Positions 16,999 through 58,576 of a stretch of DNA of 64,000 nucleotides are shown here, one piece after another. Numbering within the stretch: position 1 is the first letter of the stretch; each line of letters starts with the position of its first letter. A program made the position numbers and the translations under genes. The notes under the pieces are model-generated. The model did not search any database and was not told the DNA's origin. It saw only the letters and a program-made list of their open reading frames with translations. Source of the stretch: Escherichia phage NiC89; sequence record LC620505.1. One strand, 5' to 3'.

Positions 16999-17859
16999 TT
17001 ACACCGCCATTTTTCCTTTAATTGGCGGATGAGATACATAGTTGTTAAGAACAAAATTATGAGGCTTTGCAAATTGACTCAACCAAAATACCTGCGATTC
17101 TGTGTCCCATTCATCAAATTCATCTGGAAATTTTAATTGTAATTCGCATAAATCCATAGGTTCACGACATAAAATTTCTTTACATTGTTCTACGTGATTC
17201 ATATAGATATGAGTATTACCACCAGAAAATATCAAATCTCCCGGAATAAGATTACACATCTTAGCTACAATATGAACTAACGTAGCATATGATGCAATAT
17301 TAAATGGAAGACCGAGGAAAACATCTACCGAACGTTGATACCACTGAAGGTCAAGGTATCCATTACGCACATTAAACTGATAGAACATATGACAAGGCGG
17401 TAATGCCATATATTTAAGTTCAGCTGGATTCCACGCAGAAACAATTTGACGCCTATCATTTGGCAGTTTTTTAATACGATCAATAACTTCTATAATTTGA
17501 TCTACACCGCCAAAATCACGCCACTGTTTTCCATAAATTGGACCAAGTTCACCGCTATGGTATCCTAAATCTTTTGCTTGATTTTCGTAATTTTCATCCC
17601 AGACTGTTTTGCCTTGAATTAATGAATCATGTTGAATTAATCGCAAATCATTGACATTTGTGCTTCCTGATAAAAACCATATTAGCTCAGCAATGCATGC
17701 ATTCCAGGCGAGCTTTTTAGTTGTTACTGCAGGAAAACCTTTGGTTAAATCCCAACGCAATTTAGTACCGAACAAAGCAATTGTTCCTGTGCCCGTTCGG
17801 TCATCGGTTTCATAGCCATTTTCAAAAATGTCTTTAATTAAATCTTGGTATTGTTTCAT
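16999..17859 (-). CDS. td: thymidylate synthase (intron-less)
   Basis: 286 aa continuous ORF; matches T4 TS exon-joined length. Confidence 0.92.
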
Positions 17860-17904
17860 TTAGTACCTTATATAAATTATAATACATTTTATGAAGCTAA
17901 ATAA

Positions 17905-18252
17905 TCAATACGGTTTAGCATCAAATTTTCTCTCAATTTCAGGCGTGAAATATAATTCTTTACCGCGTTTGGAAAAGCGACCAATAATATGATAATTATT
18001 CTCATCAAACGTGATATTACCAATATCCATAGCTTTCAACCAAATATCGATATTTCTATCCAGCTTTATGTTAAAATTCCAATACGGAGAACTATTACCG
18101 AAAATACTACAAGCGGATTCAGTGAAACAACTGCTATAAATCTTGTCTTTAGGAACTACTAATTGATAGACACCTTTAATAAACTGAGGACCCTGCCACT
18201 TTGGCTGTTTCTCATCTTTTTCTAATAGAATAGGGTAATAATTAAAATTCAT
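17905..18252 (-). CDS. hypothetical protein (115 aa) inserted between frd and td
   Basis: ORF track; no recognisable motif. Confidence 0.5.
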   Translation of the reverse strand: MNFNYYPILLEKDEKQPKWQGPQFIKGVYQLVVPKDKIYSSCFTESACSIFGNSSPYWNFNIKLDRNIDIWLKAMDIGNITFDENNYHIIGRFSKRGKELYFTPEIERKFDAKPY

Positions 18253-18271
18253 ATTTCCGCCGCGCGTTATT

Positions 18272-19191
<920 letters not shown>

Positions 19192-19283
19192 TATATTTTC
19201 CTCAAATTCATTTAAATCAAGACTATGCAATTTTTAAAGCATTGCATAATAGAATTCATCATTCATAAACTCAAATACAAAAA

Positions 19284-19643
19284 TTATATTATCTCCCATC
19301 GAAAAGGGTCAGGAGCATATCCGATAGAGTTAATCATTTTAACTAAAGTTACCATTCCTTTGTTAACTGCTTGTGCGATTTCATCAAAAACTTCATCGCT
19401 ATCATCATAAAGGTCATTAAAAAGTTCTAACACGTTCTTCTGAACTTTTAATTTATGACCAACAATCTCGCCTACAGTAAATTCGTTTCCGCCGATTCCG
19501 GTGTAAAACGTAATTACACCAGTTAACAGACTTTCGCGAGAATCTAGGTCATGTGATAAATTAATATAAGCCATCCCGGGTGCAGTTTTAAGTTGGCAAC
19601 GAATTCTTACTTGGGTAATTCCGGTTACATGAATGTCGGACAT
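19284..19643 (-). CDS. hypothetical protein (119 aa)
   Basis: ORF track. Confidence 0.5.
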   Translation of the reverse strand: MSDIHVTGITQVRIRCQLKTAPGMAYINLSHDLDSRESLLTGVITFYTGIGGNEFTVGEIVGHKLKVQKNVLELFNDLYDDSDEVFDEIAQAVNKGMVTLVKMINSIGYAPDPFRWEII

Positions 19644-19653
19644 ATTATTTTCC

Positions 19654-19896
19654 TCAAATAGACTTTTTCACAATTTTCCAATCAGCTTTAAACTGATCAA
19701 CGTCAGAATGGTAAATCCAGAATCCTGCGCTTTCTCCGTCTTCATAAAGAGGACATCCATCGCATTCATCTTCCCATCCCATATCACGTAAAAGATGTTC
19801 AGCTTTTTCAATGAGTTCAGAATCTTTACCGATGATATTAAAATACCATTTACCTCTAACTTCTGAATCTTTGATGCTCTGGCGTTGTAATCTCAT
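19654..19896 (-). CDS. hypothetical protein (80 aa)
   Basis: Trimmed to MRLQRQSIK with SD GAGGAG; track extension reads through a promoter-like element. Confidence 0.5.
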   Translation of the reverse strand: MRLQRQSIKDSEVRGKWYFNIIGKDSELIEKAEHLLRDMGWEDECDGCPLYEDGESAGFWIYHSDVDQFKADWKIVKKSI

Positions 19897-19921
19897 TTTA
19901 TTCTCCTCAAGTTGATAGGGT

Positions 19922-19952
19922 AATAGTATCACACTACTACCCTGTTGTAAAC
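19922..19952 (-). promoter_or_regulatory. early-promoter-like element
   Basis: GTTTAC 19947-19952, spacer, TGTGATACTAT. Confidence 0.45.
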
Positions 19953-19954
19953 AA

Positions 19955-20214
19955 TTATTTTTGAATTTTATCGAGCCACTTACCAAGCTTAATCATTTCT
20001 TTAGTAGCCTTTTCCATACTTCTGAACTTAACCAATAGAGGATAGGTATCGACACCCATAACTAAACTGGTTACAAGACTGTGTTCACCCACAAGCCATA
20101 ACGAATACGTTTGAATATCGAGTCCGTAATTTCTGTCTTTATGGACCCGTACACCCATCACTTCAAATTTCTCACTAGCTTTTTCTACCGCATCCAGGAA
20201 ATCATCTTTAGTCA
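19955..20214 (-). CDS. hypothetical protein (about 86 aa)
   Basis: Trimmed to MTKDDFLDAV; TAATATG junction with upstream ORF. Confidence 0.45.
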
Positions 20215-20216
20215 TA

Positions 20217-20603
20217 TTAGGCCTTAAAAGTTTTTCGCAAAAGTTCAATGATTTCATCTGCATTGTTTTCGTCAACAATGCAGTGAATTTTTGTTACGCC
20301 AGAAACTATACCTTCATTAGCGGATTGAGGCTTTTCTAAAGTTACCTCAGTAAAGTATTTGAATTCTTCAGAGTAAATCTCAAAATACGTCTCAAGTGGG
20401 CCACCCGCCATGTATTCAGTACCATCTTCCATAGTTACACGTACCACACATTCACCAGCACAATCATCACTTTCCATTTCATCTACAACAAAACTAGGTC
20501 CGTGCTTCTCTATTAAATTTAGCATCATTACATTGCAACGGCACTCGTTAGCAAAGTCATTTTTAAATAAAGGGTTAATGATATAAGTTTTTCCAACTTC
20601 CAC
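20217..20603 (-). CDS. hypothetical protein (128 aa, GTG start)
   Basis: ORF track; SD GAGGAAATCAAA before GTG. Confidence 0.45.
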   Translation of the reverse strand: MEVGKTYIINPLFKNDFANECRCNVMMLNLIEKHGPSFVVDEMESDDCAGECVVRVTMEDGTEYMAGGPLETYFEIYSEEFKYFTEVTLEKPQSANEGIVSGVTKIHCIVDENNADEIIELLRKTFKA

Positions 20604-20623
20604 TTTGATTTCCTCATTTTAAC

Positions 20624-20642
20624 GGGGCTATCAAATAGCCCC
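20624..20642 (-). promoter_or_regulatory. intercistronic hairpin
   Basis: GGGGCUA-UUUGA-UAGCCCC on minus strand. Confidence 0.35.
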
Positions 20643-20649
20643 TTGATAA

Positions 20650-20901
20650 TTATTGTTCAATCAGTCCCATGTAAAATTCTGCGTCTTCAGAATCCATGCC
20701 ATCGCAATATTCATTAGCCATAAAGCGGGTAAGGTCTTCAAGAGGACCTTCAATGACAATAGAAAAATTGCAATAATTGGGATCATCATGAATACTTGTG
20801 ATACTAAGTTCAGGATAACGATTACGAATAATCTCTTCAATATATTCAAAATCAACGATGTCAATATCAACTTTAGCCATATTATTTTCCTCTTTAATCA
20901 T
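20650..20901 (-). CDS. small strongly acidic protein (83 aa)
   Basis: Asp/Glu-rich composition; SD AGAGGAAAATAAT; promoter-like element upstream. Confidence 0.5.
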
Positions 20902-20921
20902 CAGCAGTATTGCCGATAGTT

Positions 20922-20952
20922 GTATAGTACCATAAAGCCTTATGTTGTAAAC
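20922..20952 (-). promoter_or_regulatory. early-promoter-like element (conserved long form)
   Basis: GTTTAC 20947-20952 with T/A-rich upstream tract and TGGTACTATAC -10 region; follows the gene 32 terminator. Confidence 0.5.
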
Positions 20953-20975
20953 CGTTTTGTGAAAAAATTTTTGAA

Positions 20976-21002
20976 ATAAAAAAGGGGACCTCTAGGGTCC
21001 CC
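20976..21002 (-). terminator. rho-independent terminator downstream of gene 32
   Basis: GGGGACC-CUAGA-GGUCCCC hairpin followed by U6. Confidence 0.7.
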
Positions 21003-21024
21003 AATCAATTAGTAATATAATCTA

Positions 21025-21930
21025 TTAAAGGTCATTCAAAAGGTCATCCAGGTCCGTGTCATCAGCACTAGATGAACTGCCAGAGCTTGAGCTCATAAAA
21101 TCATCTTCAGTTTTTGTATTGAAGTCATCAACATTGAATGCATCCAAATCATCAGCAACTTTATCAGCTTTCTTAGCAGCAGTTGCAGCGGCACCACCCA
21201 TCACAGCAGTTCCCATAACTTGACTGAACTTAGTGCTCAGTTCTTCAAACGATTTGAATTTATCTTTAGAAGTCATTTCAGAAAGGTCAACCATTTGTTC
21301 GAACAGTTCTTTCTGGAAAGATTCATCGTCAATGTTTGGAATCGCAGATTGATTCAGGAATTTAGATTCGTCGTAGTTACTAAAACCAGAAACTTGTTTA
21401 ACTTTCAGTACAAAGTTAGCACCTTCCCACGGACAAGTTACATCAACCGGAGTTTCACCCATTTCAACATCAACTGCAATCATTGCATTGATTTTATCCC
21501 AGATTTTCTTACCGAAACGGTATTTAAATACTTTACCTTCATTTTCTGGAGCAGCTGGGTCTTTTACTACAAGAATGTTAGCCCAGTAAGAAGTTTTACG
21601 TTTAACAAGACCGTACTCTTTATTGTCAGTGTTGTACAGATCATTTTTACTGATGTACTGACATACTGGACAAGAATCGTAATCACCATGGGTAGATGAA
21701 CATGTTTCAATATACCATTTACCATTTTTCTTGAAACCGTGATTTACAAGAATTGCGAATGGTGCTTGTTCATCATTTTTAGACGGAAGAAAACGAATTA
21801 CTGCTTGACCGTTACCCGCATTATCGAGTTTCAGTTTCCACTCGCCTTTATCTTCAGAAGAAAAACCTTTATTGCCATTCAGTTTAGCCATTTGTGCAGC
21901 AAGTTCAGCAGTAGATTTACGTTTAAACAT
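21025..21930 (-). CDS. 32: single-stranded DNA-binding protein gp32
   Basis: 301 aa, [36 protein letters not shown]... with acidic Ser-rich C-terminal tail; matches T4 gp32. Confidence 0.95.
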
Positions 21931-22005
21931 TTTATTTCCTTTTTAATTTAATTTAATTAACAGTTGGTGCTATGACACTTTACCTCATAGCTGACATAAT
22001 TCGCA
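21931..22005 (-). promoter_or_regulatory. gene 32 translational operator (unstructured UUAAA repeats plus upstream pseudoknot)
   Basis: Minus strand reads ...UGUCAGCUAUGAGGUAAAGUGUCAUAGCACC..AUUAAAUUAAAUUAAAAAGGAAAUAAA AUG, matching the T4 gene 32 autoregulatory leader. Confidence 0.7.
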
Positions 22006-22617
22006 ATACTCTGGGTCTTCGAGAGGTATCCAACCTGAGTTGAAATACTTTACCATCGATTTAGCAGTTGTATCAGTTATATTTATATTACCTTTAACTC
22101 TTCGCCATCCAGGAGTTTTACCGTACAGATTAGAGGATAATAATAACACATAATTCTCGTAAGCAATATGAGATAATTTCCAAGACTCTATATTAGCTCG
22201 TGATGTTTTCCAAGGTCTAAAATCGTCACGGTTCATATAATTAGCCAATCTCATATGCTCTCTAACTTCCGGATCTTTGGCTGGATGAGTTTCACCACTC
22301 ACACCAAATCCACCACCAGCATATACCAGATTAAAATAGTCTGGATTATCTCTGGCATTTACTTCAAGTTGATATTTTCGTTCTGCTTCAATAACATCCA
22401 AGTCATCATCAATTTGAATTATTTTAACGCTCGGTTTTTGAAGCATTAGCGCATTCAAAAATCTTTTTTGTTTACATGAGCTCCAGTATTCCTTTCCGGA
22501 AGAGTCATATATTATTCCGTTCTCAAATGAGCAATTTAATTTACTACCGATATAGTAGTATGGCGGAGTCTTATTTTTGACACGGTCTTCAAATGTAAAC
22601 CAATATACTATATTCAT
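21985..22617 (-). CDS. segG: GIY-YIG homing-endonuclease-like protein (SegG-like)
   Basis: IVYWFTF...YYYIGSK (GIY-x10-YIG) at N-terminus; sits between genes 32 and 59 as T4 segG does. Confidence 0.65.
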   Translation of the reverse strand: MNIVYWFTFEDRVKNKTPPYYYIGSKLNCSFENGIIYDSSGKEYWSSCKQKRFLNALMLQKPSVKIIQIDDDLDVIEAERKYQLEVNARDNPDYFNLVYAGGGFGVSGETHPAKDPEVREHMRLANYMNRDDFRPWKTSRANIESWKLSHIAYENYVLLLSSNLYGKTPGWRRVKGNINITDTTAKSMVKYFNSGWIPLEDPEYCELCQL

Positions 22618-22618
22618 A

Positions 22619-23272
22619 TCAATACTTACAAGATTTCACAGTTTCAATAAAAACTTTTTTAGCTTCCTGTGAATCGATATTTAAAATTTTTCTATAAGCT
22701 TTTAACTTTATAGAATAATTGTTCCAAACTAAATTATCAGTTTGTTCATCATGTTTATCGATTATATTTAAAAACGAATCAAGCAAGATAAACGTCTCAA
22801 ACGAAATTATATTCGATTGAAGTAGTTTAAAAATATAACTTGATTGAACTTTTGGATTATATTCAAAAATTTCTTTAAAAGCAGAAACTTCAACTTTTTT
22901 ACTAAAATAATAAATGTTGCGAATATCTTCTTCAAACTTAAATTTAATTTGCTTTAAGCGTCCGATATATTCACGATAAAACACAAGTGCATCAGCGTCA
23001 GAGATGTCACCAATCCAAGCATCTTGGTTAGCAACCAAATTACTTATAAAGATTAAAGCAAGTTCCTTTAATTTATATTTTTCTGATAACTTCTGAAAAA
23101 AATACTTATCCCTTCGCTTTTGATAAGCGGCATCAGACACCCGCATGCACCAATTATACTTAATAACATCATACTTTCCATTCATATGCTGTTTTATCAT
23201 TAAGTATAATTTATAAACTGATTTACCATCAATGTATCTTTCACCACCAGCAGGCATGCGGAGTTTAATCAT
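22619..23272 (-). CDS. 59: helicase loader gp59
   Basis: 217 aa, MIKLRMPAGGERYIDGKSVYKLY... matches T4 gp59. Confidence 0.92.
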   Translation of the reverse strand: MIKLRMPAGGERYIDGKSVYKLYLMIKQHMNGKYDVIKYNWCMRVSDAAYQKRRDKYFFQKLSEKYKLKELALIFISNLVANQDAWIGDISDADALVFYREYIGRLKQIKFKFEEDIRNIYYFSKKVEVSAFKEIFEYNPKVQSSYIFKLLQSNIISFETFILLDSFLNIIDKHDEQTDNLVWNNYSIKLKAYRKILNIDSQEAKKVFIETVKSCKY

Positions 23273-35703: not shown

Positions 35704-35856
35704 TCAATTAGTTGACTTTGTTATAATATCATCAGACACTTGATTTGTAAACTGGTCTGTGTTATTTTCTTCAAAAATTTTTTCTACGAATTCCTTGAAC
35801 GACTTACGTTCCTGAGCTACATTATGCTCGATTACTTTTTCAAGATTATGACTCAT
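35704..35856 (-). CDS. hypothetical small protein (50 aa)
   Basis: Not in ORF track (under 60 aa); own translation MSHNLEKVIEHNVAQERKS...; ATGA overlap with arn stop. Confidence 0.4.
   Translation of the reverse strand: MSHNLEKVIEHNVAQERKSFKEFVEKIFEENNTDQFTNQVSDDIITKSTN
35721..35752 (-). promoter_or_regulatory. early-promoter-like element upstream of asiA
   Basis: GTTTAC 35747-35752, 18 nt, TATTAT; lies inside the upstream small ORF. Confidence 0.45.
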
Positions 35857-36131
35857 TCGAAATAATCTTCAATTTCATAATCATGGACATAAATCATTAT
35901 AGTTTTTAATACATCATCAATACTTTTTCCTGGAGCTGGAATTACGTAAAAATATCCTGCTTTTGAGAGGTCTTTATAAGTTCCAATCAAGAAATCATTA
36001 TTCTCAAGATGTAGTTCTTCAACTAATTCATTAACAATTGAGTGGTATAAATTTGGTAGAAACTTATATAGCTTTTCTAGAATATCAATTTTGATTGTGT
36101 ATTGAACCACAGACTGAGAATCAATAATCAT
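35853..36131 (-). CDS. arn: Arn anti-restriction protein (McrBC inhibitor)
   Basis: 92 aa, MIIDSQSVVQYTIKIDILEKLYKFLPNLYH... Confidence 0.85.
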   Translation of the reverse strand: MIIDSQSVVQYTIKIDILEKLYKFLPNLYHSIVNELVEELHLENNDFLIGTYKDLSKAGYFYVIPAPGKSIDDVLKTIMIYVHDYEIEDYFE

Positions 36132-40632: not shown

Positions 40633-40848
40633 TTACTCGTCGCAGTCGACGCTCAATTCCCAGAATTCTTCTACGGTATAAGTTTCAGTATCATTTTCAA
40701 TACAGAAACGTTCATTACTATTATTTGCTAAAGTAGCATTAACTGTCGGTTTCTCGCTAGTGCTCTTAAGAGGTGAAATACGAATTAACTGATCACCGTT
40801 ATCTAAACAAAAAATTTCACCAACTTTTACATCTTTAAAACTTTTCAT
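40633..40848 (-). CDS. hypothetical protein (71 aa)
   Basis: ORF track; SD GAGGTGAATT. Confidence 0.5.
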   Translation of the reverse strand: MKSFKDVKVGEIFCLDNGDQLIRISPLKSTSEKPTVNATLANNSNERFCIENDTETYTVEEFWELSVDCDE

Positions 40849-56748: not shown

Positions 56749-56931
56749 TTATTTTGCCCAGGGAGCCCAAGGCGGAGGGTCAAGATGGTATGAAGCTAGT
56801 TCTTCTAGAAGAGCATCTGGGGCTTCAATTCCATAATTCTGTAATACTATACGGTACTCTTTCTTATAATCACTAGAATCATTCTGGATATTCGTAGAAT
56901 GATTATCTTCTAACATCTCAAATAAATCCAT
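56749..56931 (-). CDS. hypothetical protein (60 aa)
   Basis: ORF track. Confidence 0.4.
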   Translation of the reverse strand: MDLFEMLEDNHSTNIQNDSSDYKKEYRIVLQNYGIEAPDALLEELASYHLDPPPWAPWAK

Positions 56932-57766: not shown

Positions 57767-58238
57767 TTATTTTACCTAAAACGATAGTATGGACACCGTC
57801 AAATTCATGAATTTTTAGCAAATTAGGATTTAAATTATTCCATAAAGAGGTAATAAAATATGATAGCGCACTTTCGTCCGTAATTATAAATTTATTTCCC
57901 TTATCAATTTTCCAGTCATATATTGAATCATATGAATAGAAGGATAACGGTTTATTATTATAGTATGCTTCAGCAACATCAATATAGTTAGATTTAGTAA
58001 ATGCTTGAATTGCCATAAATGGAGAATTTTGTACAGTTTCAATAATTCCGATCTTTTTAAGTTTTATTTCAACATCTTCTGGAACTGGCATTGAAATAAA
58101 ATCTTCTACTAGATACATGTCATTGTCATATCTTTTATCAATCATTACTGCTACGGTAATTGGAACATCCTTGACAAACGCCATACTAATACTATTGATA
58201 GACATTTCAAACAAAATTGCTTCCATAATTTTCCTCAA
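57741..58238 (-). CDS. hypothetical protein (165 aa)
   Basis: ORF track. Confidence 0.5.
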
Positions 58239-58576
58239 TCACAAGATGTAGATGAACAACTAGAATCACAAGAACTTCCACATGAATCACCTGCCCATAC
58301 GTGAACAGGAACATTTGTATCATATGAATCAGAACTAGACTGTGTATTCTGTGTGTTAGATGATGCAGTAGGTGTTGACCAGCGCCAAGGATTTTTATAA
58401 TATTCTTGGGCTTCTTCATAAGTCATAGTAACTGCTTCTACTGTTCCATCTCCCATATAAACATATTCAACTACAGTTAAAGGAAGATAGTCATTTGAAA
58501 TAGGAACTACACCTTCTCCCGGAGTTGTAGAGAAAAAATCTGTAAAGAAATTTTTAAACCAATTAAAGATAAACAT
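58235..58576 (-). CDS. hypothetical protein with Cys/Ser-rich C-terminal tail (113 aa)
   Basis: C-terminus [18 protein letters not shown]. Confidence 0.5.

Follow-up and report, generated by a model that had tools for sequence, protein, structure and literature searches.

Introduction

A described counterpart of the arrangement examined here is the PeSL cassette (Arbiol et al., 2010; Comeau et al., 2014), which has previously been described as a driver of gene shuffling in hyperplastic regions, and whose consensus combines TTTACW-N17-TAYWAT with a stem-loop, a Shine-Dalgarno (SD) sequence and an ATG (PMC4122927). For the T4 genes located between gene 32 and frd, CRISPRi-ART identified Frd.2 as the sole "Fit" T4 gene of unknown function (PMC11879866), while knock-down of frd.3 and frd.1 scored "Not Fit," with no fitness cost in the laboratory host (PMC11879866, supplementary file 15). 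The N-terminal domain of T4 Frd.2 is predicted to be LSm/SH3-like (PMC12152347). According to one study, the T4 frd.3 mRNA is one of the most abundant T4 RNAs that carry an NAD cap (bioRxiv 10.1101/2024.04.04.588121). A literature search for functional work on frd.3, frd.1, DUF5417, DUF7247 and PF05798 found none.

Here, we analyze the gene 32-frd interval of a 64,000-nucleotide stretch of DNA from Escherichia phage NiC89 (LC620505.1), hereafter referred to as the window. We focus on a strongly acidic small protein encoded directly behind the gene 32 terminator.

Results and Discussion

Gene Content Between Gene 32 and frd

The window belongs to a Tequatrovirus of the RB51/RB68/wV7/G157lw clade. 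In the frd-to-32 region (RB51ORF236-241), these phages share the identical set and order of six CDSs at 98-99% nucleotide identity, with no notable difference. Six minus-strand ORFs, here called A to F (Table 1), occupy this interval of the window from gene 32 to frd, compared to three in T4 (frd.3, frd.2, and frd.1). The first-pass annotation had also counted six, but placed them all within 19284..20901; this span holds five, and ORF F (19191..18850) falls outside it. The genes are closely packed, with stop/SD or ATGA overlaps. Kanagawavirus Entb_45, a representative of a distant genus, has the same layout, running from gene 32 through a Frd.3-like ORF to frd, with eight ORFs.

Table 1. Features of the gene 32-frd interval, and the Arn gene located elsewhere in the window.
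Feature	Position	Strand	Description
Gene 32	21930..21025	-	Core gene, one flank of interval
Gene 32 Rho-independent terminator	21002..20984	-	7-bp GC stem, then T-run; -14.3 kcal/mol
Putative T4-type early promoter upstream of frd.3	20952..20924	-	GTTTACA-N16-TACTAT, TG-extended, upstream A/T-rich stretch
ORF A, frd.3 orthologue	20880..20650	-	76 aa, Pfam Phage_FRD3
40-nt mosaic patch in frd.3	20755..20794	-	Encodes beta2-beta3 hairpin, about residues 29-42
GC-rich stem-loop between frd.3 and frd.2	20642..20624	-	8 bp, 3-nt loop; -13.6 kcal/mol, z -2.68
ORF B, frd.2 orthologue	20603..20217	-	128 aa, GTG start, Pfam FRD2
ORF C	20215..19955	-	86 aa, phrog_4423; RB51ncORF239c
Second putative T4-type early promoter, upstream of frd.1	19952..19923	-	GTTTACA-N17-TACTAT
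Stem-loop overlapping frd.1 promoter	19943..19917	-	12 bp; -15.2 kcal/mol, z -2.3
ORF D, frd.1 orthologue	19896..19654	-	80 aa, DUF5417
ORF E	19643..19284	-	119 aa, DUF7247; RB51ncORF237c
ORF F	19191..18850	-	113 aa, phrog_8592; RB51ncORF236c
frd	18853..18272	-	Core gene, other flank of interval
Arn	35853..36131		Pfam PF22134 DM_Arn, DNA mimic

All six ORFs were assigned to PHROG families (each E ≤ 1e-36), all of them families of unknown function, and the Pfam families matched across the interval were Phage_FRD3, FRD2, DUF5417, and DUF7247. Scanning the seven small ORFs with PADLOC and NCBIfam gave no meaningful match, PDB sequence searches with ORFs A, C, D, E, and F gave none below E 0.02, and Rfam at E ≤ 1 over positions 17800..22200 returned only two chance-level eukaryotic matches. 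The ORFs are short (76-128 aa) and without known function, and ORF C has a weak SD, as might be seen if some of the six were chance ORFs in AT-rich DNA rather than genes. The PHROG assignments argue against this reading, as do full-length, frame-preserving homologues in 79 to 887 phage records per ORF (30-100% identity) and a canonical GAGG SD cassette upstream of four of the six; we consider it extremely improbable.

The true extras relative to T4 are ORFs C, E, and F, all known already and annotated in RB51, RB68, wV7, and AR1. ORF C (pI 7.95) is missing from T4 as a clean indel located between the frd.2 stop and the frd.1 promoter. Its homologues were found in 348 phage records, Drexlerviridae and Phapecoctavirus among them, and its AF2 model reached a pLDDT of only 70, with no fold assignable. 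ORF E matches Pfam DUF7247 (E 5e-32) and is represented in 426 phage records; what remains of it in T4, by the blastn blocks and junction sequences, is no more than the SD, the ATG, and 16 codons from its start. Given this relic, T4 looks like the deleted state for ORF E, and ORF F was probably lost along with it. ORF F, whose stop overlaps the frd start (ATGA), was found in no more than 79 phage records; apart from this Tequatrovirus clade, most are listed as JS98-like (Dhakavirus-type) phages of ~170 kb. We make no claim for a MotA-box-like TGCTTTA in the E-F spacer, since no -10-like hexamer lies at the distance from it that the T4 middle-promoter rule calls for.

The two remaining ORFs besides the acidic one correspond to frd.2 and frd.1. 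ORF D is 96% identical to T4 Frd.1. The Frd.2 orthologue, ORF B, has a pI of 4.38 and a net charge of -14, and is an equally acidic, allele-hypervariable neighbor of Frd.3. The SH3-like topology predicted for Frd.2 is also found in CarS, a DNA-mimicking antirepressor. ORF B matches Pfam PF03197 FRD2 at 115.9 bits (cutoff 29, E 1.4e-33) as well as phrog_622, and is 44.5% identical to T4 Frd.2 overall. Judging by the alignment, its N-terminal domain, at only about 40% identity, is a divergent allele, while the C-terminal ~30 aa are near-identical to T4 (one change plus the last residue). By its FRD2 and phrog_622 matches and its conserved C-terminus, ORF B fits the GoF/MotB.1/Frd.2 LSm-like family (Kim et al., 2025, PMC12152347); the LSm fold is a prediction for T4 Frd.2, and membership is assigned here by sequence.

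Promoters and PeSL-Type Cassettes

The regulatory elements of the interval are largely those of T4. The gene 32 terminator is identical in T4, and the wV7 record annotates it as a terminator. The frd.3 promoter is near-identical in T4, with one substitution and one 1-nt gap in the spacer, and so is the frd.1 promoter region, which in T4 directly follows the frd.2 stop. Across the window, GTTTAC-N16-19-TANNNT has 22 occurrences where 3.9 would be expected, 20 of them on the minus strand. The stem-loop between frd.3 and frd.2 carries no U-tract and is probably a weak terminator or RNA-stability element; its T4 counterpart is a 6-bp version with a different loop. We thus recovered the two internal early-promoter-like elements and the hairpin of the first-pass annotation, along with its placement of the acidic ORF directly behind its own early promoter after the gene 32 terminator.

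The first cassette (21002..20880) contains every PeSL element: a terminator stem-loop, an A/T-rich stretch, GTTTACA-N16-TACTAT, AGAGGA, and ATG. Its stem-loop part is the gene 32 terminator itself. In the frd.1 cassette, the promoter, the SD (GAGGAG), and the ATG fit, but the stem-loop lies inside the promoter (spacer and -10) and not upstream, and the published PeSL layout is matched only loosely. The likeness to PeSL cassettes extends to the hyperplastic setting and to an adjoining indel relative to T4 (ORF C), while the stem-loop after frd.3, having no promoter, is at best a "half" element. Four of the six ORFs have the cassette GAGGAAAATAATATG, or a sequence close to it, in front of them.

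T4-like phages carry, from core gene 32 to core gene frd, a hyperplastic block whose small early genes are non-essential, and the interval described here is an ordinary example of it. Host RNA polymerase would read it on the minus strand from the two T4-type early promoters (GTTTACA/TACTAT), each embedded in a composite cassette with a stem-loop, an A/T-rich stretch, an SD, and an ATG. The positions of the indel junctions suggest that gene content may shift through recombination between short homologous stretches in the repeated promoter and SD-ATG cassettes. Mosaic allele exchange may also alter content, with the frd.2 N-terminal domain and a 40-nt hairpin patch in frd.3 as candidate cases.

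The Acidic Protein Is an Orthologue of T4 Frd.3

The acidic ORF had initially been regarded as one of the extra genes. Its product matches Pfam PF05798 Phage_FRD3 at 129.6 bits (cutoff 28.1, E 6.3e-38), with residues 1-76 aligned to profile positions 1-75, and is 86.8% identical to T4 Frd.3 (NP_049853, listed as [quoted passage not shown]). The gene is part of a 2.1-kb block with 96.8% nucleotide identity to T4, where frd.3 occupies the same place, straight after the gene 32 terminator and an early promoter, and is equal in length bar one codon. The order of gene 32 terminator, frd.3, and frd.2 is found in the window and again in Kanagawavirus Entb_45, and Frd.3 homologues occur in 732 phage records. 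By sequence, the acidic ORF is the T4 frd.3 orthologue and not an extra gene, and non-orthology is essentially excluded. With the Pfam match, the 87% protein identity, and the shared block, the earlier reading had to be abandoned: this ORF belongs to the content shared with T4, a circumstance which the first-pass annotation had itself named as contrary to its view. An 88-aa ORF with a TTG start on the plus strand (20653..20919), antisense to frd.3, was taken as a shadow ORF.

The protein had been delimited as 83 aa, encoded at 20650..20901. The ORF and its acidity stand, but the start is probably the ATG at 20880, which gives 76 aa, because T4 has ATA where the window has the upstream in-frame ATG; the longer reading would be seven codons too long. 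AGAGGA precedes the ATG at 20880, and Frd.3 is annotated at 75-76 aa in RB51, wV7, and T4.

Divergence from T4 within the gene is sharply localized. In the DNA alignment with T4 frd.3, the 40-nt patch accounts for 19 of 21 nucleotide differences; there, T4 encodes the hairpin segment SVQDS-KFWSIQ and the window carries another allele, while the flanking DNA is about 97% identical. Column entropy is 1.29 in the patch, compared to 0.37 and 0.56 in its flanks.

Charge, Fold, and Distribution of Frd.3

The description of the protein as strongly acidic and Asp/Glu-rich was borne out by calculation, with a pI of 4.05, a net charge of -15 over 76 aa (-16 over 83 aa), and an Asp+Glu content of 25%. 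It ranks as the most acidic among ~100 ORFs of at least 60 aa in the window. Acidity is a family-wide feature, with all Frd.3 family members examined carrying net charges of -6 to -15, and is kept down to about 25-30% identity. The AF2 model (pLDDT 92.3) has a beta-alpha-beta-beta-alpha-alpha order, and the predicted fold is a generic ferredoxin-like alpha/beta domain. Structural homologues in BFVD came only from other Straboviridae and one Erwinia jumbo phage, all of them uncharacterized; no PDB relatives were found below E 0.02 by single sequence or profile. A search of 1.84 billion proteins with the Frd.3 profile gave only seven matches. A match of the profile to the 2044-aa Cys-rich repeat protein P0040, spread over 11 stretches (E 4.5e-10), was judged a repeat-inflated artifact. 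Frd.3 is a Straboviridae-wide 75-aa protein of predicted ferredoxin-like alpha/beta fold, in which negative charge is conserved.

Potential Roles of Frd.3

T4 Arn, T7 Ocr, and ArdA are, like Frd.3, small, early, and strongly acidic, and the first-pass annotation had pointed to Ocr/ArdA-type mimics. Frd.3 would then be a DNA mimic of this kind, filling the DNA site of a restriction, other defense, or nucleoid protein right after infection. It does have the very low pI and high carboxylate density of such mimics, and its charge density is double that of Arn (-9 over 92 aa), a validated mimic encoded in the same window. The conserved acidity of the family, the early, promoter-proximal position of the gene, its dispensability in the laboratory host, and the hypervariable hairpin are also in line with mimicry. 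However, a sequence relation is undetectable: the comparison with the Ocr, ArdA, and Arn families by Pfam scan at E ≤ 1 yielded no relation, but just Phage_FRD3 and a sub-threshold RelB-like match, and when the Frd.3 alignment was compared by hhalign with the Arn of the window, the probability was 0.5%. The AF2 fold is ferredoxin-like rather than the elongated, DNA-shaped dimer of Ocr/ArdA, and there were no known mimics among the fold matches listed. Since the folds of known mimics are unrelated to one another, absent fold similarity is not decisive against mimicry. We consider a mimic of the Ocr/ArdA/Arn kind possible but unsupported, with charge as its only basis, and quite unlikely overall. 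A broader version, to which we also give a rather low probability, is that Frd.3 represents a new, fold-unrelated acidic mimic or decoy that blocks the basic nucleic-acid-binding surface of a host defense or nucleoid protein, with the 40-nt hairpin cassette exchanged among phages to set the target; Frd.2 could be a second inhibitor.

The predicted fold also resembles PII- and ACT-like domains and could serve small-ligand or metal binding instead, with Frd.3 as a PII/CutA/ACT-like sponge or sensor, possibly oligomeric; we regard such a function as improbable. Similarly unlikely, in our view, is that Frd.3, possibly jointly with Frd.2, works in RNA metabolism or gene expression, where it might for instance assist or regulate an RNA-binding protein. 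The idea stems from the proposed LSm-like family of Frd.2, GoF, and MotB.1, but in the same study wild-type GoF and MotB.1 were without effect in a reporter assay (PMC12152347). The pI values of Frd.3 (4.05) and Frd.2 (4.38) argue against direct RNA binding, and our literature search found no published link of Frd.3 to an RNA role.

We favor a role for Frd.3 as a non-essential protein-binding accessory, which we infer only from its charge, size, timing, and dispensability. By these features, Frd.3 would act stoichiometrically early in infection on some host or phage protein, to whose positively charged surface it would bind. It may be a host-takeover or counter-defense accessory that is relevant on certain hosts only, and the swappable beta-hairpin would then be its likely specificity surface. 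Taken as a whole, the explanation that combines a variable block and PeSL-type expression with presumed cassette recombination and a conjectured protein-binding role of Frd.3 appears very probable to us.

Conclusion

The cluster described here is an already known, variable block of small early genes, re-identified in a much-sequenced phage clade, and the finding is ordinary because the acidic protein is T4's own Frd.3. Frd.3 and Frd.2 are the two most acidic proteins of the 64-kb window and show localized allele swapping. They are conserved across T4-like phages and are produced in the first minutes of infection. Identifying their targets would close a gap in the picture of the T4 early programme, and could bring to light an anti-defense or host-takeover mechanism.

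Gene Content of the Gene 32-frd Interval

The region between gene 32 and frd in NiC89 is an ordinary hyperplastic block of a T4-like phage. Every gene in it lies on the minus strand, and positions 18800..21100 share 98-99% nucleotide identity with the Escherichia phages vB_EcoM-G157lw, JLBYU31, RB68, RB51 and wV7. In total, 788 phage records match this stretch, whose relatives are Tequatroviruses (Straboviridae). Six small ORFs, lettered A to F, occupy the interval (see table), with starts picked by Shine-Dalgarno (SD) context and by RB51/wV7 annotation; T4 has only frd.3, frd.2 and frd.1 there. The first-pass annotation correctly counted six ORFs against three, but its coordinates ended at 19284 and missed ORF F, the stop codon of which overlaps the frd ATG as ATGA. 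It had also read the acidic ORF A as an 83-aa protein from the ATG at 20901. A 76-aa product from 20880 is more likely, because AAAGAGGAAAATAAT precedes that ATG, T4 has ATA at the position of the upstream ATG, and annotation gives the counterparts in T4, RB51 and wV7 a length of 75-76 aa.

Features of the segG-td region of NiC89, with the number of phage records matched by tblastn among 50,697
Feature	Coordinates	Strand	Description	Records
segG-like ORF	22617..21985	-	First in gene order of the region	
Gene 32	21930..21025	-	After segG-like ORF	
Gene 32 terminator	21002..20984	-	Terminator scan	
Promoter-like site 1	20952..20924	-	GTTTACA-N16-TACTAT; TG before -10	
ORF A	20880..20650	-	76 aa; Frd.3; Pfam Phage_FRD3, E 6.3e-38	732 (129 with the window's allele at at least 99%)
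Stem-loop between A and B	20642..20624	-	-13.6 kcal/mol	
ORF B	20603..20217	-	128 aa, GTG start; Frd.2; Pfam FRD2, 1.4e-33	887 (~83 at at least 90% to the window allele; 668 below 60%)
ORF C	20215..19955	-	86 aa; no Pfam family; phrog_4423	348
Promoter-like site 2	19952..19923	-	GTTTACA-N17-TACTAT; TG before -10	
Stem-loop inside second promoter	19943..19917	-	-15.2 kcal/mol	
ORF D	19896..19654	-	80 aa; Frd.1; DUF5417, 1.4e-33	
ORF E	19643..19284	-	119 aa; DUF7247, 5.2e-32	426
ORF F	19191..18850	-	113 aa; no Pfam family; phrog_8592	79
frd	18853..18272	-	After the six small ORFs	
Extra small ORF	18252..17905	-	115 aa; between frd and td; RB32ORF229c, phrog_1928	
td	17859..16999	-	After the 115-aa ORF	

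None of the six PHROG families carries a functional annotation, PADLOC and NCBIfam scans of the small ORFs added nothing, and a PDB sequence search returned no relatives of ORFs E and F. Our literature search found no paper on the function of Frd.3, Frd.1, DUF5417 or DUF7247. At the edges of the region, the homing endonuclease ORF of segG type matches T4 SegG at 100% identity, and the 115-aa ORF separates frd from td, which overlap directly in T4. The window's td is an unbroken 286-aa gene, lacking the T4 group I intron and I-TevI.

Comparison With T4

Alignment by blastn matched window 22675..20588 to T4 at 96.8%, a block that takes in segG, gene 32 with its terminator, the promoter, frd.3 and the opening codons of frd.2. 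The acidic ORF, previously presented as an extra, therefore belongs to the three genes that the window has in common with T4. It is frd.3, which by sequence is a conserved lineage gene rather than a clade-specific addition. Downstream, the body of frd.2 was too diverged for alignment, while its final 83 nt aligned at 97.6%, the frd.1 promoter and frd.1 at 91-92%, and frd at 94.6%. Identities to the T4 proteins are 86.8% (Frd.3), 44.5% (Frd.2) and 96.2% (Frd.1). ORFs C, E and F found no T4 counterpart in this comparison, apart from a start relic of E, and are the true extras; all three already have annotations in RB51 (RB51ncORF239c, 237c and 236c) and wV7.

The 71-bp 'intergenic' frd.1-frd stretch of T4 contains an SD and an ATG together with 16 codons homologous to the first ones of ORF E (NC_000866 145704..145761 against window 19586..19643; MYVIEIIQVSIRFQLK followed by a stop, against MSDIHVTGITQVRIRCQLK...), which argues that T4 is the deleted state for this ORF. 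T4 is probably the deleted state for ORF F also. ORF C is a clean indel: 261 nt lie between the frd.2 stop and the GTTTACA of the frd.1 promoter in the window, whereas the two directly adjoin in T4. In Entb_45, of the distant Tevenvirinae genus Kanagawavirus, eight ORFs lie between 32 and frd, with a Frd.3-like ORF first, as in the window, and a DUF5417 ORF mid-block. The three genes of T4 sit at the low end of the range, and six are unremarkable.

ORF C also occurs in unrelated groups, namely Drexlerviridae (Webervirus and Guelphvirus siphoviruses) and Phapecoctavirus myoviruses. These homologues outside Straboviridae show 42-63% identity, and at the three such loci inspected its neighbors were small hypothetical genes, several in a row. 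ORF C appears to be a small gene passed from one phage family to another. ORF F was found, among the matches listed, mostly in ~170-kb JS98-like (Dhakavirus-type) phages and in the window's clade.

Promoters and Cassettes

The two internal early-promoter-like elements and the hairpin described in the first-pass annotation were all recovered. Matches to GTTTAC-N16-19-TANNNT number 22 in the window, 20 of them on the minus strand; shuffles gave 3.9 +/- 2.2. Both sites belong to the phage's standard early promoters and are not chance matches. Each transcription unit is headed by a composite element made up of a stem-loop, an A/T-rich stretch, an early promoter, an SD and an ATG. This arrangement corresponds to the promoter-early stem-loop (PeSL) cassette of T4-like phages (Arbiol et al., 2010; Comeau et al., 2014; PMC4122927), which those authors proposed as a mediator of gene shuffling in hyperplastic regions, with a PST/T4 consensus of TTTACW-N17-TAYWAT (PMC4122927). 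The first cassette (21002..20880) is a good fit. The promoter of the second also fits, but here the stem-loop is contained within that promoter, and the stem-loop after frd.3 has no promoter; T4 keeps the stem of the latter with a different loop.

In front of ORFs A, D, E and F stands the SD-ATG cassette GAGGAAAATAATATG, exact or slightly varied (minus strand ...TTTGAGGAAAATAATATG; 19189..19207, 19641..19659, 19894..19912 and 20878..20892), and a near-identical copy heads the ORF E relic in T4. Such initiation cassettes could serve as micro-homologies for recombination at gene boundaries, and the junction positions make short-homology recombination a plausible route for the indels. The 92-nt E-F spacer (19192..19283) holds an inverted repeat, TATGCAAT...ATTGCATA (~19222..19250). 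A MotA-box-like TGCTTTA in this spacer was rejected as a promoter, as its spacing to the -10 does not fit.

Frd.3 and the DNA-Mimic Reading

Charge calculation bore out the strong acidity of ORF A (pI 4.05, net charge -15, 25% Asp+Glu), which ranks first, with ORF B second, among ~100 non-overlapping ORFs of at least 60 aa in the window. All Frd.3 family members examined are acidic (net -6 to -15), even at ~25-30% identity. Small and very acidic ORFs are also present at 58235..58576 (113 aa, pI 4.05, DUF7206), 56749..56931 (60 aa, net -8) and 40633..40848 (71 aa, net -8).

The acidic ORF had been proposed as a DNA mimic or anti-restriction protein. Its charge and the conservation of that charge favor mimicry, and nothing else supports it. 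The window does encode Arn, a validated T4 DNA mimic (35853..36131, Pfam DM_Arn 4.4e-54), with -9 over 92 aa, half the charge density of Frd.3. Hhalign of Frd.3 against this Arn gave 0.5% probability, a Pfam scan at E<=1 matched none of the Ocr, ArdA or Arn families, and single-sequence and profile searches of the PDB found no relative. A word-indexed search returned 37 clusters, all of at least 64% identity, and a profile search run exhaustively over 1.84 billion representatives gave seven matches, one of them rejected as a repeat artefact. The AF2 model (pLDDT 92.3, pTM 0.81, 23-sequence alignment), ordered beta(2-8), alpha(11-21), beta(26-33), beta(38-45), alpha(47-58), alpha(64-71), predicts a generic ferredoxin-like fold. 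The 60 fold-search matches listed include no known mimic. A BFVD fold search recovered homologues at TM 0.82-0.93 and 22-50% identity from Erwinia phage Cronus, from the Serratia phages X20 and Muldoon, and from a Klebsiella phage; the sole designation of each is 'uncharacterized 8.8 kDa protein in frd-Gp32 intergenic region'. The original observation was real but in part mis-assigned, and its interpretation is supported only in part.

CRISPRi-ART knock-down in T4 scored frd.3 and frd.1 'Not Fit' (PMC11879866, supplementary file 15), and frd.3 is dispensable there (PMC11879866). Its mRNA is listed with the most abundant T4 RNAs that carry an NAD cap (bioRxiv 10.1101/2024.04.04.588121), consistent with a transcript that starts at its own promoter.

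Localized Variation in frd.3 and frd.2

Nearly all differences between the two frd.3 genes (19 of 21 nt) fall inside a patch of 40 nt (20794..20755) that has a one-codon indel as well and codes for the beta2-beta3 hairpin; outside it, the protein is unchanged from T4. Across 23 alleles, column entropy is 1.29 bits at residues 28-41 against 0.37 and 0.56 in the flanks, and the hairpin is the least confident section of the model (pLDDT 75). Otherwise near-identical phages circulate several distinct hairpin alleles. The patch looks like mosaic exchange, because its DDPNYCN motif recurs in alleles with more diverged backbones, e.g., P0017.

Frd.2 (net charge -14) repeats this pattern at larger scale. 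Its N-terminal domain is replaced and hypervariable while the flanks are ~97% identical, and its last ~30 residues are nearly constant relative to T4 (one substitution plus the final residue). For T4 Frd.2, published work (PMC12152347) predicts that the N-terminal domain is LSm/SH3-like and describes frd.2 amber mutants as viable. By CRISPRi-ART, frd.2 was weakly 'Fit' in T4 (0.83, p = 0.027; PMC11879866, supplementary file 15), the sole T4 gene of unknown function so scored (PMC11879866). A 10-bp perfect inverted repeat (20258..20283) lies inside the frd.2 3' end, in the sole part of the gene ~98% identical to T4. Its fold is very stable on either strand (-15.7 and -17.1 kcal/mol; z -4.4 and -5.0; 0/200 shuffles equally stable), and on the plus strand, where a U-rich tail follows, it was flagged terminator-like. 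It may act as a terminator for transcription in the antisense or late direction, or mark a recombination boundary.

Implications

The present analysis established identity, synteny, promoter class, conserved acidity, fold class and the mosaic patch, while the dispensability of frd.3 in T4 comes from the literature. The block comprises three genes of T4 plus three accessory genes already on record, read early in infection from two promoter cassettes of standard type; its indels may have arisen through recombination at the cassettes. Tentatively, Frd.3 would be non-enzymatic and bind a positively charged protein surface, in host-conditional takeover or counter-defence, with the beta2-beta3 hairpin as its likely specificity surface. 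The features of the region, including its two conserved, acidic early proteins, Frd.3 and Frd.2, are already known and annotated.
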